Source of the DNA: Eledone cirrhosa
Taxonomy: Eukaryota
Assembly: GCA_964016885.1 (NCBI GenBank)
Contig: OZ024741.1
Location: 261,764,001-261,828,000 of the forward strand
Length of the DNA: 64,000 nucleotides
Direction of reading: 5' to 3'
The translations under genes and the position numbers were made by a program. The notes beneath the pieces are model-generated. The model was given only the letters and a program-made list of their open reading frames with translations. It was not told the DNA's origin and ran no database searches. Below are positions 33,463 through 61,942 of this stretch, piece by piece; positions within the stretch are counted from its first letter, which is position 1, and each line of letters opens with the position of its first letter.

Positions 33463-33597
33463 TTTGTTGACAGTCGTCCTCCTGATAACCTGCAGCACAT
33501 CCATTTGGACATCTTCCATTTGTTTTATCACAGTTTTCGTTCCTGGCACAATTACAACGTTTCCTGCAATTGTTACCAAAAGTTCCTTGACCGCATT
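33463..33597 (-). CDS. EGF-like (MEGF/laminin-EGF type, 8 Cys) exon ECGQGTFGNNCRKRCNCARNENCDKTNGRCPNGCAAGYQEDDCQQ
   Basis: CxxGxFGxNCxxxCxC...CDxxxGxCxxGCxxGYxxxxC pattern. TTTTCAG / GTAATT splice sites; 135 nt, phase 1-1. Confidence 0.92.
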
Positions 33598-34756
33598 CTG
33601 AAAATATCATTATAGAAAAAAAAAAAATTCATACATCATTATATATATATATATATATATATATCACAGTCACTCCTCTCTCTCTTTATATAATCACACA
33701 TACAATCTCCCTTTCTCGCTCTAGCAATCTTATAAAATCAAAGATAAGCAACATAAACACACGCACACACACACACATAAGCGTGTTGAAAAAATCCAAA
33801 TCGCTTCATCTTTCTCTTTCACACTCTCTCTCTATATATATAGTATAGATATAACGGAAGTATTGAAATTTGAATTTTTCAAAAGAAGTGAATCTTGAAC
33901 TATGTAATAATATTTTTAATATATGTTTAATCATGTGTTACGAAATTTAGTAGATAAATGATGTAATATTCATTAATTATTTATTCAAAGTAATCAAACT
34001 TATTTTACAAACGGGATAAAAAATTATATTCTGGATGCAGTGCCGCACTCCTTTCTTTATCATAGTTAAGATATCATATATTATATATCATATATTATGT
34101 ATATATCACACACACACACATATATATATATACACGAATATATACAAACATATTTACTAGTGGGGTCTATCAAGACACCTCAGTAAAATAATCAATGAAT
34201 AAAAGTCTAGAAAATATATTTTCATATAGATGAGTTTGGAACTAATTATCATTAAACTATTATATCCTAGAATATCAAGGAAATATAACGTAATTAATAG
34301 ATACAGCGAAGAAAATATATCATATACAACAGATAATTGTTTCTACTTTTGGCACAAGGCCAGCAATTATCCCAGTGCATTACTTTATTTTATTGACCCT
34401 GTAAGTATAAAAGGCAAAGTTAACCTCGGCGGGATTTGAACATGTTGCAAAGCATAGTGTCTGACGCTCTACCGATACTGCCAATATAATGTAGAGTTAA
34501 CAGGAATGTAATGTTCTGAATGATAAACTTCGTTTTGTTAAGAATAGAGTTCAACGTAATATAGAATAGATATTTCATAATGAGCGACAAAAAGAAAATC
34601 TCATATTTTTCAATGTAAATATTGAATAGTATTAGAAAGGATGTTGATCTTTAGTTGTTGTCAGAGCAATGCTGCGAATAGAAAATTAATATGAAATCTT
34701 ATACATATTTTCTTCAAGATAAATATATATTTTATACATTCTAGAGATATAAATAC

Positions 34757-34891
34757 CTTGTTGACAGTCATCCTTCTGATAACCTGCAGCACATTCATTT
34801 GGACATCTTCCATTTGTTTTATCACAGTTTTCGTTCCTGGCACAATGACAACGTTTCCTGCAATTGTTACCAAATGTTCCTTGACCGCATT
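34757..34891 (-). CDS. EGF-like exon ECGQGTFGNNCRKRCHCARNENCDKTNGRCPNECAAGYQKDDCQQ
   Basis: Same 8-Cys pattern. TTTTCAG / GTATTT; 135 nt, phase 1-1. Confidence 0.92.
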
Positions 34892-36378
34892 CTGAAAATA
34901 TCATTATAGAAAAAAAAATAATTCATACATCATTATATATATATATCACAGTCACTCCTCTCTCTCTTTATATAATCACACATACAATCTCCCTTTCTCG
35001 CTCTAGCAATCTTATCAAATCAAAGATCAACAACATAAACACACGCACACACACACACACACACACACACACACACACACACACACACACACACACACAC
35101 ACACACATAAGCGTGTTGAAAAAATCCAAATCGCTTCATCTTTCTCTTTCACTCTCTCTTTCTCTATATATAGTATAGATATAACGGAAGTATTGAAATT
35201 TGAATTTTTCAAAAGAAGTGAATCTTGAACTATGTAATAATATTTTTATTATATGTTTAATCATGTGTTACGATATTTAGTAGATAAATGATGTAATATT
35301 CATTAATTATTTATTCAAAGTAATCAAACTTATTTTACAAACGGGATAAAAAATTATATTCTGGATGCAGTCCCGCACTCCTTTCTTTATCATAGTTAAG
35401 ATATCATATATTATATATATATATATATCATATATTATATATATATATCATATATTATGTATATATCACACACACACATATATATGTGTATATATATATA
35501 CATATATATATATATATATATATATATATATATATATATATATATATATATATATATATATATATATATATATATATATATATATATATATAGAAACATA
35601 TTTACTAGTGGGGTCTATCAAGACATCTCAGTAAAATAATCAATGAATAAAACTCTAGAAAATATATTTTCATATAGATGAGTTTGGAACTAATTATCAT
35701 TAAACTATTATATCCTAGAATATTAAGGAAATATAAAGTAATTATTAGATACAGCGAAGAAAATATATCATATACAACATTTAATTGTTTCTACCTTTGG
35801 CACAAGGCCAGCAATTATCCCAGTGCATTACTTTATTTTATTGACCCTGTAAGTATAAAAGGCAAAGTTAACCTCGGCGGAGTTTGAACATAGAACGTAA
35901 AGGACTTTAACTCTATGCTGCAAAGCATGGTGTCTGACGCTCTACCGATACTGCCAATATAATTGTTTCTACTTTTGGCACAAGGCAAGCAATTATTCTA
36001 GGGTATTACTGGTACTTTATTTTATCAACCCCATAAGGATGAAAGGCAAAGGTAACCTCGGTGGGATTTGAACTCAGAGTTAACAGGAATGTAATGTTGA
36101 TATAATATATGTTCTGAATGTTAAACCTTATTTTGTTAAGAATAGAGTTCTATGTGATATAGAATAGATATTTCCTAACGAGAGATCAAAAGAAAATCTC
36201 ATATTTTTCAATGTAAAGATTGAATAGTATTAGAAACTGTGGTGATGTTTAGTTGTTGTCAGAGCAATGCTGCGAATAAAGAAATATATAGTTACATCTC
36301 TAGAAAATTAATATGAAATCTTATACATATTTTGTTCAACATAAATATATATTTTATACATCCTAGAGATATAAATAC

Positions 36379-58930: not shown

Positions 58931-59038
58931 AGTCTCTGAAGATTTGATAGAGATAACATGTATTTTTAAATTGAGTGGCACTAATTTCAATGTTTAGCAA
59001 TTTTTAGACAACTCTATCACTGAAACAATTGTTAAACT
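58931..59038 (+). ncRNA. Degenerate hammerhead-like motif with long stem II
   Basis: AGTCT-CTGAAGA-TT-TGATAGAG...CTCTATCA-CT-GAAA-CAATTG-TT-AAACT. Confidence 0.5.
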
Positions 59039-61807
59039 ATAAATAAATTCCCTTTTTTGTACTGTTGACCATGTTATTCTCCACCTTTTCAATTTTATAT
59101 ATATATATATATATATATATATATGTATGCATGTATATATATATAATTTTTTTTGAATGACCCGCCAAAAACCGGCTCTTATTTCCCTTGCTGGAATTAA
59201 CACGTGACAGCTATAGATACGATACGCTGCAACTAGCGGCAGCATTTAGCCTATCATCCCGTCCTGGGTAGAACGTAAACCTGCTGAAGAATTGAATCCT
59301 CTGTTCGATCATGAATACCACGAGCTTGCCAGTCACGTAAGTCTGATATTTGATTTTGGATTAAAAGAAACACTTTAAACGTATAATCATTTGATTTGTC
59401 CAGGTGTATTTTTCTCAACCTGCTAGTTCTATCGTTACTTTGGTATATTATTGTGTGTTAGATTTTGCCTACCACAATGTTCGATTTGTCAAGCTATTTA
59501 AACGTATTTTATTACTCTAAGGACCTACCTTATCGAGTGCTTTGCTAACTCATCATTTCATATAAGTAGGCCGAATTTGCTTGCAAACCGCCAGAGACTC
59601 GATTTTACTAAATTTCAAAATATATTATTCTCCTAGATTTAATAATTAACTAATTAATTTAATTAGACAATTCTGTTGATTGGTTAATTATTTGTGTTTT
59701 TTTTATAACATCTAGTCGAGAGCTTATCATGATGATTAGCGGAAATTAAAATATTTCCTTTGTCTAACATTTTGAATGACCCGCCAAAAACCGGGGGTAC
59801 TAAATTTCCAAATATATATATATATATATATATATATATAGGAATGAAAAATCGCGTTCTCTGTTGTAGCAAATGTGATATACAAATTAAAATGAAGAAT
59901 TAGAAATAAGACTATCCATCCTCAGTGATCTTCTAGCCAGCATAGGTATTTCTTGGCATTAAAGACCAGATACCTCAGGCTAGCGCGAACAATAAGTAAA
60001 ATAAGTTATTGGGATAAAAAGAATTGGGTGTAGAAAGAGAGACAGGTAAACAAACATGAATGGTGAGGCAACGTAAAGAGAGGAAAAAATGAGAAAATAA
60101 AGTCAATGATTCGTTTAAGCATAAGTACTTGCGAATATTGACGAGAAGACGAGAGACACATCCCAACCATGTGAAAGTAAGCGAGGAAAGAATTACGCAC
60201 GGTGTGGGACGATGGAGGACGTGAGAGAGAGGGTGAGTAGCAGAGGGTAAGTGAGTGAAAGTGTAAGGAAGAGGCTGGTCGAGAGAGGGTGACTAGCAGA
60301 GGGATGAATGAAAGTAAGAGGAAGAAGGAAAGAGAAAGGGGAGATAGAAAGGTGATAGCAGTAAGGGAAGAGAAAAAGACAGGTCACAGCGAAGGGGAAA
60401 GCATATAGGAATGAAAAATGGCGTGCTCTGTTGTTGCATATGTGATATACAAATTTAAATGAAGAATTAGAAATAGGAATACACATATATATATAACGAA
60501 GTCAATGTGGTAAGGCTAATTCTGGACTGCTAATTCTGGACTAAATTAGTCCAGAATTAGCCGTCGAAACGGCTTGAGCTCAGCCGTCGGGGTCCTCCTC
60601 GTTCCTATTACACACTCTACTAACCTAAGCTAAGTATTGAGTACTTTGGTGCGTTATGGTCCACCTGGTTCCTTACCACATTTCCTTCGTTATATATATA
60701 TATATATATATATATATATATATATATATATATTATAATATATATATATATTATAATATATATATATATTATAATATATATTATATATATATGACCGGCT
60801 GATGTGTTGTTTCCTTGAGCAAGACACATTATTTCACATTGCTCCAGTTTACTCAGCTGTAGGAATGATATGATAGGGACCGGCGGTCCCTATCATTCCA
60901 CTGCAAAGTGGTCGTGGAGGTGTCACGGCGAAAAAGCACCCAGCCCATACTGTAAAGTGAACGTGTAGGCGTCATGGAAAAAAGCACCCAGCACTCACTG
61001 TAAATGTGGTTGGTGTTAGGAAGTTGGTGTTGATATATACACATCGACTGACATCGCCGGTCCATGTTATTCTTCACTCATTTACTATATATAAATATAT
61101 ATATGTATATATATACGCATATATACAAACATATTTGCTGGTGACACCGCAGTAAAATAGACACCGCAATAAAATAATAAATGAATAAAAGTCTAGATAG
61201 TATATTTAGATATAGATGAGTGTGAAGCTAATTATCATTAAACTATTATATCCAAGAATATCAAGGAAATATAACGTAATTAATAGATACAGCGAAGAAA
61301 ATATATCCTATACAACATATAATTGTTCCTACATTTGGCACAAGGCCAGCAATTATCCCAGTGCATTACTTTATTTTATTGACCCTGTAAGTATAAAAGG
61401 CAAAGTTAACCTTGGCGGAGTTTGAACATAGAACGTAAAGGACTTTAACTCTATGTTGCAAAGCATGGTGTCTGACACTCTACCGATTCTGCCAATATAA
61501 TGTAGAGTTAACAGGAATGTAATGTTAATATAACTATATGTTCTGAATGATAAACCTCATTTTATTAAGAATAGAGTTCTATGTAATATAGAATAGATAT
61601 TTCCTAACGAGAGACCAAAAGAAAATCTCATATTTTTCAATGTAAATATTGAATAGTATTAGAAACTGTGGTGATGTTTAGTTGTTGTCAGAGCAATGCT
61701 GCTAATAGAGAAATATATAGTTACATCTATAGAAAATTAATACGAAATCTTATAGATATTTTGTTCAACATAAATATATATTTCATACATTCTAGAGATA
61801 TAAATAC

Positions 61808-61942
61808 CTTGTTGACAGTCGTACCCGTGATATCCTGCAGGACATCCATATGGACATTTTCCATCTGTTTTATCACAGGCGTAGTTCCCGGCACAATTAC
61901 ATTGTTTTGTGCAATTTTTACCAAATTGTCCTCGACCGCATT
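61808..61942 (-). CDS. EGF-like exon ECGRGQFGKNCTKQCNCAGNYACDKTDGKCPYGCPAGYHGYDCQQ
   Basis: 8-Cys pattern. TTTTCAG / GTATTT; 135 nt, phase 1-1. No signal-peptide exon is visible, so the gene start lies beyond the window. Membership in the same gene is inferred. Confidence 0.88.

Follow-up and report, generated by a model that had tools for sequence, protein, structure and literature searches.

Faster change in the ectodomain than in the introns of a duplicated lectin-EGF receptor phosphatase gene of Eledone cirrhosa, likely through diversifying selection

Introduction

Receptor-like protein tyrosine phosphatases (PTPs) that carry multiple EGF modules and a galactose-binding domain (MEGF/GBD) have been described in Biomphalaria snails. 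SudRes1 of B. sudanica combines multiple EGF and galactose-binding/fucolectin domains outside the membrane with one transmembrane (TM) segment and tandem PTP domains, and such receptors have been placed in a schistosome-resistance region; their duplication is recent, and their extracellular parts vary by many nonsynonymous differences as well as by loss and number variation of EGF modules (PMC12297450). The same layout is given for LG5R Subgroup 1C of B. glabrata in PMC13712769, and PMC13070813 reports oyster haemocytes enriched in receptor PTP (RPTP) and multi-EGF transcripts, at family level only. Here we examine a gene of the cephalopod Eledone cirrhosa, part of which lies in a stretch of 64,000 nucleotides (nt) (hereafter the window; GenBank assembly GCA_964016885.1, contig OZ024741.1, positions 261,764,001 to 261,828,000 of the forward strand). 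It is predicted from the sequence to encode a single-pass receptor tyrosine phosphatase with EGF-like and F-type-lectin-like domains outside and two PTP domains inside.

The initial annotation of this window had compared tandemly duplicated EGF exons, found them more diverged than the adjoining introns, and proposed a rapidly diversifying ligand-recognition ectodomain coupled to a phosphatase. That proposal gained support from a different comparison, namely with a second copy of the gene, and most strongly in the single-copy lectin and EGF exons past the window end. Between the two copies the ectodomain accumulates amino-acid changes about 8 times faster than the introns change. Diversifying selection that acts on the surfaces which bind ligands is the likely cause, probably in immune recognition. 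We give this reading a probability of about 0.62.

Results

Ectodomain, introns and cytoplasmic exons compared between two gene copies

A second, collinear copy of the gene was located 4.2 Mb away, at C2:257.43-257.65 Mb of the assembly. Introns differ between the copies at 550 of 142,701 filtered sites (0.39%); in 2 of 1,057 windows of 135 sites the count rises to 9 differences, and in no window does it rise to 15. The TM and cytoplasmic exons are similarly quiet: an amino-acid difference was found in 3 of 582 codons, with 3 nonsynonymous differences (Nd) over 1368 sites and 1 synonymous difference (Sd) over 378 sites. The ectodomain exons, on the other hand, differ in 41 of 611 codons (Nd 45.5/1436, Sd 5.5/397), and the contrast with the cytoplasmic part is strong (Fisher p 1.5e-10). 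The ectodomain and TM exons are listed below from the N-terminal end onwards with their differences from the second copy, whose units are marked by a prime. Extended coordinates continue the window numbering past its end (>64000).

Extended, within 104451-108324, minus strand: three N-terminal exons (N1, N2, N3), no difference between copies
Extended 102559-102702, minus strand: EGF-like exon G, 4 nt (4 nonsynonymous, 0 synonymous)
Extended 99848-100105, minus strand: GBD1, first half of the lectin-like domain, 2 nt
Extended 87525-87701, minus strand: GBD2, second half of the lectin-like domain, 13 nt and 12 amino acids; flanks 1/600
Extended 83834-83977, minus strand: EGF-like exon F, 9 nt and 7 amino acids
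61943..64000, minus strand: intron toward the 5' part of the gene, whose 5' exons lie beyond the window end
61808..61942, minus strand: EGF-like exon D, 8 Cys, the most divergent unit; 15 nt and 11 amino acids from D'
38205..38333, minus strand: EGF-like exon E, single copy, absent from the initial annotation; 3 nt (3 nonsynonymous, 0 synonymous)
36379..36513, minus strand: EGF-like exon C, identical to C1' (0 nt); EGF_laminin E 0.003, below cut-off
34757..34891, minus strand: EGF-like exon B, 4 nt and 3 amino acids from B'; 0/630 intron differences
33448..33597, minus strand: EGF-like exon A, 1 nt; prolonged by 15 nt as far as a GT donor downstream; A or A' is joined to the TM exon in sequencing run X4
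15427..15520, minus strand: transmembrane exon, hydrophobic as read from the sequence, no difference between copies

Eight of the ectodomain exons are single-copy, that is, they have no close sibling unit from which they could be converted. In these exons Nd is 29/1004 and Sd 2/286. The pairwise GY94 model gave an omega (dN/dS) of 5.3-6.5 with a likelihood ratio test (LRT) p of 0.011-0.028 (kappa 2-4), and the binomial p was 0.012-0.042. A context-corrected neutral expectation derived from the introns amounts to 3.5 nonsynonymous and 1.1 synonymous differences for the same exons. Hence, synonymous sites match the introns, and nonsynonymous sites lie about 8-fold higher.

The replacements are also not a random sample of possible changes. 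Charge is altered in 27 of 41 (37.5% expected, p 2e-4), and a Cys is touched in none of the 41 (14.8% expected, p 0.0014). Across the 28 modelled exons there was no stop, frameshift or Cys loss. When polarised on an older paralog (C2:230.39-230.44 Mb), 46 differences divided into 16 derived in the window's copy, 11 derived in the second copy and 19 unresolved. GBD2 and exon F have three DNA matches each in the assembly, which are the two copies and the older paralog, and a private 16-nt patch of exon D has a single match; a search with these three sequences found no close donor for any of them. Diversifying selection on the ectodomain is thus the likely explanation as judged from these substitution patterns, and exons F, GBD2, G, E and D would hold the named candidate residues for altered binding.

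As a separate observation, three intron windows at extended 93700-94600 have 8-10 differences per 135 sites, the maximum in the gene, possibly from conversion within a repeat.

Divergence and exchange among the tandem units A to D

The four units of the initial annotation, D (61808-61942), C (36379-36513), B (34757-34891) and A (counted here as 33463-33597), are 135-nt exons on the minus strand with phase 1-1, AG/GT ends and 8 Cys each, so that their coordinates, splice sites and Cys were all reproduced. A recount likewise returned the hand counts for C and D, which differ at 23/135 nt and 14 amino acids (14/44 full codons; 18.5 nonsynonymous, 4.5 synonymous) and at 8/187 positions of the intron adjoining the exon. 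Exons C and B differ by 12 nt (8.5 nonsynonymous, 3.5 synonymous), and B and A by 6 nt (3 nonsynonymous and 2 synonymous in full codons, plus the last base).

Over all alignable intron, C and D differ at 43/693 sites (6.2%), and compared with this the exon is still significantly more diverged (Fisher p 9e-5). The other pairs containing D likewise keep an excess of exon over intron change. No such excess was found for C and B (12/135 in the exon, 36/629 in the intron, p 0.12) or for B and A (6/135 and 20/630, p 0.30). The claim that these exons outpace their introns therefore holds for the pairs with D, but not for C-B and B-A. Moreover, the C-D intron is uneven, with 19/451 differences (4.2%) near the exon and 20/196 (10.2%) further off (p 0.006), and the exon compared with the distal intron gives p 0.05. 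The earlier baseline of ~4% was correctly counted, but it had been taken from the most similar part of the intron.

Together with five units in the second copy, the four units here form a set of nine, for which the exon tree measures 0.376 and the intron tree 0.140 (2.7x); synonymous sites of the units also outpace the introns. The extra unit, C2' (C2:257.572 Mb), has no counterpart in the window's copy, and joins a C-like 5' end to a D-like 3' end. Further signs of exchange were plentiful. The PHI test gave p 0.002, indicating recombination or conversion; A and C share an identical run of 15 consecutive polymorphic sites (p 0.0013, uncorrected); the intron of D' has a 3-site patch of A/B type; and at 8 of the 15 exon sites that distinguish D from D', D' bears the A/B/C base.

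Gene model and domain layout

The gene model was assembled manually from motif scans, splice-site scoring and comparison with the older paralog. It comprises 28 exons and about 1,212 codons, and is incomplete at the signal peptide (for which the model holds no identified exon), in the juxtamembrane part and in PTP domain 2. The gene spans ~180 kb and overruns the window at both ends. In modelled order it consists of the three N-terminal exons (fold unassigned), EGF G, GBD1, GBD2, EGF F, D, E, C, B and A, the TM exon, PTP domain 1 and a degenerate PTP domain 2. Seven exons are EGF-like with 8 Cys, and each of them alone scores under the Pfam cut-offs. The module matches SCARF1 (8HNA) weakly (E 0.12) and falls in the Atlas clusters EGF_laminin and EGF_PEAR1L, the clusters matched in the Atlas being rich in molluscs; an AlphaFold model of exon D reached pLDDT 86 and pTM 0.55. 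A single TM segment sits between the EGF array and the PTP exons.

The lectin-like domain was recognised by PF22633 (31.9 bits, cut-off 27.8; Atlas 0.96). GBD1 resembles the F-type lectins FBP32 (3CQO, E 2.4e-11) and 1K12 (E 6.8e-6), and GBD2 resembles 3CQO (E 7e-4). The fucose-binding motif of F-type lectins, His...Arg-x-Asp...Arg, is not intact: the His is replaced by Ala (SCAAT versus SCTHT of FBP32), the first Arg is kept, and the Asp position holds Ser. As the fucose-binding His is missing, a microbial fucose ligand is not implied.

On the cytoplasmic side, five exons of PTP domain 1 match PF00102, which bears out the coupling to a phosphatase proposed in the initial annotation. All four motifs typical of active classical PTPs (KNRY, WPD, HCxxGxGR(S/T)G and the Q-loop) were found in domain 1. 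Domain 2 was traced in four exons, by motif and weak tblastn matches only, and is without the Arg of Cx5R. Protein homologue searches with exon C and with one PTP exon returned no matches. The cytoplasmic exons modelled in the window are as follows; the remaining domain 1 exons and the whole of domain 2 are located before position 1, at a distance of up to ~69 kb.

12907..12990, minus strand: predicted juxtamembrane exon, from a splice-site scan alone
9914..10053, minus strand: predicted juxtamembrane exon, phase incompatible with a candidate at 10562-10601; the model is incomplete here
8470..8557, minus strand: KNRY-containing exon of PTP domain 1, two genome matches, alone without a Pfam match
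2319..2392, minus strand: PTP domain 1 exon with DYINANYI, Y_phosphatase E 1.8e-4
1304..1328, minus strand: PTP domain 1 exon of 25 nt with YVACQG
165..262, minus strand: PTP domain 1 exon with DFWRMVW, Y_phosphatase E 9.7e-11

Two features of the D-E intron may be recorded here. An open frame of 755 amino acids at 45730-47994 resembles, to judge by its motifs, a non-LTR reverse transcriptase, and a ~470-bp tandem duplication with 99.6% identity occupies 42498-43457.

Splicing of the EGF exons

Contigs of sequencing reads were compared with one stretch (61520-62005) in 4 of 23 runs. Run X4 comes from another sample and has the same species label as the best matching runs; its kind is unrecorded, and we read it as RNA because two of its contigs join exon ends exactly. 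In the first, the 3' end of C (5 differences from D, all matching C) runs straight on into exon B or A' at its first base. In the second, A or A' with a further 15 nt (8 differences, as predicted) continues into the TM exon, likewise at its first base. These are the only two exon junctions observed. Exons C, a B/A' exon and A are thus spliced in. According to the second contig, which may stem from A or A', the spliced form of exon A is 33448-33597, with a donor 15 nt beyond the one noted earlier. Pieces resembling D were seen several times in X7, a run of another species, with a phase that was not resolvable.

The sequence at 33448-33462 is notable in itself: in unit A the exonic G of the original donor has been lost, while 15 nt further downstream a change from A to T creates a GT, whose use adds 5 codons before the TM segment.

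Genomic setting

The duplicated block measures at least 320 kb, contains no N in the 714 kb examined, and lies inside a 16-bp satellite. Both copies are islands in a megabase array of this satellite (C2:257.2-262.2 Mb), and upstream of the gene there is a 45-bp satellite with a length of ~90 kb and ~70 kb. Comparison of flanks and satellite showed the satellite flanks of the two copies to be out of register. The nonsynonymous contrast holds alike for paralogs (divergence) and for haplotypes placed in tandem (polymorphism). The older paralog has the N-terminal, lectin and EGF exons in common with the two copies; no PTP motif was found there within the 200 kb examined.

At least 150 related EGF exons are present in the genome (1,341 candidates, 150 of them scored). 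The scored exons are 44-amino-acid modules with 8 Cys, and the majority stand in dense clusters at C10:25.9-27.3 Mb and C2:310.6-314.9 Mb, many of them ~300 bp apart. Lectin-exon matches number 39 of 43 candidates. Some 28 matches to F-type-lectin exons score almost equally and lie at C20:3.5-5.3 Mb (spacing mostly 105-240 kb), at C27:13.1-15.4 Mb and on C23, C16 and C22; this spread suggests a recent amplification over several chromosomes. Intronless FERM-PTP frames of ~930-1,250 amino acids were seen at C22:17.64 Mb and C14:9.15-9.16 Mb (on C14 a tandem row of three, internally repetitive) and are possibly retrocopies. Intronless PTP frames on C22, C14 and C10 were tried as a guide to annotation and gave little help, being FERM-PTPs or part of another receptor.

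Discussion

Under the reading preferred here, selection would favour new, often charge-changing point mutations on the second half of the lectin-like domain and on several EGF modules, with the disulfides kept. Exon duplication and short conversion tracts would in addition shuffle variants among units A to D, and such shuffling, we propose, would pull the dN/dS of the units toward 1 and partly homogenise their introns. By analogy with the RPTP family, ligand binding may change receptor dimerisation and thereby the phosphatase output of domain 1, with domain 2 as an inactive regulator. By analogy with the snail receptors, for which such a role has been proposed, an immune ligand would be the most likely driver.

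Several results weigh against this reading. Half of the ectodomain exons (6/12) differ by only 0-2 nt. The LRT for the whole ectodomain gives p 0.03-0.09 depending on kappa, and, like that for the single-copy exons, it compares two sequences with few synonymous sites and uncorrected p values; the single-copy subset was moreover chosen after the per-exon table had been seen. Against the older paralog, dN/dS is 0.77, and exon pS (0.315) exceeds the divergence of aligned introns (0.214), which means that a neutral rate taken from introns can be too low. Among the units, the exon dN/dS that the initial annotation had proposed to set beside intron divergence came to 0.204/0.177 for C and D (about 1.15; Fisher test of dN versus dS, p 0.43). 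Between copies the units give an omega of 1.1-1.4, and a codon model of all nine yields an M0 omega of 0.87 and p 0.72 for M1a versus M2a, site models being unreliable under recombination. The catalytic loop of domain 1 (C2:261742936-261743070), at a position usually hydrophobic, carries Asp here, where the second copy has Val; this is one of only three cytoplasmic amino-acid differences between the copies, and to judge by the motif the Asp may weaken the phosphatase of the window's copy. Finally, a D-type exon was not seen among the contig pieces of X1, X2 and X4, which cannot show absence.

It follows that the step from four units to selection, as first taken, does not stand: an omega above 1 was not established among A to D, and the search for conversion, also proposed at the outset, detected conversion or recombination among the units. 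Since exchange among the units is evident and dN/dS is about 1, the unit comparison alone cannot separate selection from conversion. Conversion without selection for change, in which introns were homogenised between units or copies and exons were patched from diverged donors, does account for part of the A-D pattern, to which the PHI result, the A-C run, the D' and C2' patches and the uneven C-D intron all belong; the three variable intron windows near 93.7-94.5 kb and the pool of at least 150 EGF exons as possible donors speak for it too. It does not account for the gene-wide pattern. Imported patches should carry synonymous differences, yet the single-copy exons have the 2/286 given above; GBD2 and F are without a close donor in the assembly, and many of their variants differ from the older paralog; Cys loss is avoided and charge change favoured. 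As the whole explanation, conversion is therefore improbable.

A decay of one copy under relaxed constraint, joined with a higher mutation rate in GC-richer exons, could appeal to the Asp in the catalytic loop, to the M0 omega near 1 of the units, and to the faster change of CpG and G/C sites in the introns. Relaxation, however, cannot lift nonsynonymous change 8-fold above the neutral rate. The cytoplasmic exons without excess largely refute it, changes fell on both copies, and the modelled exons remain free of stop, frameshift and Cys loss, so that we regard it as very unlikely. An assembly artefact, through sequence errors or chimeric joins, is hardly credible. Both copies do lie in megabase satellite arrays, and the DNA contigs of another sample yielded no D-type sequence, but errors would not favour nonsynonymous ectodomain sites while sparing Cys, the 714 kb are free of N, and haplotypes placed in tandem would leave the test valid. 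The remaining alternative accepts the same selection and changes its cause, with cell-cell or self/non-self recognition, gamete recognition or chemosensing instead of pathogens. RPTPs and MEGF proteins also serve adhesion and neural wiring, the lectin-like domain is without the His of the fucose set (SCAAT versus SCTHT), and the present analysis identified no ligand. Against it, the only receptors of the same layout for which we found a description are tied to parasite-resistance regions, and PMC13070813 reports, at family level only, the haemocyte enrichment of RPTP and multi-EGF transcripts in oyster. We consider this alternative unlikely, though the least so of the four.

Which receptors give genotype-specific recognition is an open question in molluscs. 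For the layout discussed here, the case from snail resistance to schistosomes rests, in the accessible portions of its accounts, on association and visible diversity. The present locus, in a mollusc that is probably distant from the snails, adds 41 amino-acid differences in the ectodomain versus 3 in the inner part, at a neutral divergence of 0.4% and with controls inside the same gene, and it offers named residues (lectin second half; EGF F, D, G and E) and two natural variants for a comparison of binding. It also illustrates that an exon-versus-intron contrast among tandem units is a weak test alone. More tentatively, and with doubt prevailing, lectin-EGF receptor phosphatases could form a pan-molluscan hypervariable immune-receptor system. 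In cephalopods its dynamics would resemble those of the MHC, in that the lectin and EGF surfaces would be under strong selection and exon modules would be duplicated and exchanged by micro-conversion, here with direct phosphatase wiring. The 150 or more related EGF exons clustered on two chromosomes would then amount to the wider repertoire.

Our literature search, with subscription journals outside its coverage, found neither a cephalopod description of such a receptor nor this exon-intron pattern for one. Exons that diverge faster than introns, with a charge-changing bias and short conversion tracts, are familiar from MHC peptide-binding, conotoxin and snake-venom PLA2 genes; those are unrelated proteins with many alleles, and the receptor phosphatase here is compared in two copies. 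SCARF1/SCARF2, MEGF10/Draper and PEAR1 have the 8-Cys EGF-like module in common with it; they are not known to carry a lectin or PTP domain, and in vertebrates they are conserved as single genes. F-type lectins (FBP32 3CQO, 1K12) are alike in the sequence of the GBD, but here the binding His is Ala, and the domain is membrane-bound and fused to a phosphatase. The closest likeness is to the Biomphalaria MEGF/GBD receptors, with which the predicted protein shares all four features: multiple EGF modules, a galactose-binding-like domain, a single TM segment and tandem PTP domains. Unlike them, it belongs to a cephalopod and its copies lie in satellite DNA, and the excess of change is gauged against intron, synonymous and cytoplasmic controls, whereas the accessible snail accounts give no dN/dS. 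Taken together, the receptor appears to be a further member of the MEGF/GBD receptor phosphatase layout, with a selection signal that is well controlled and modestly significant.

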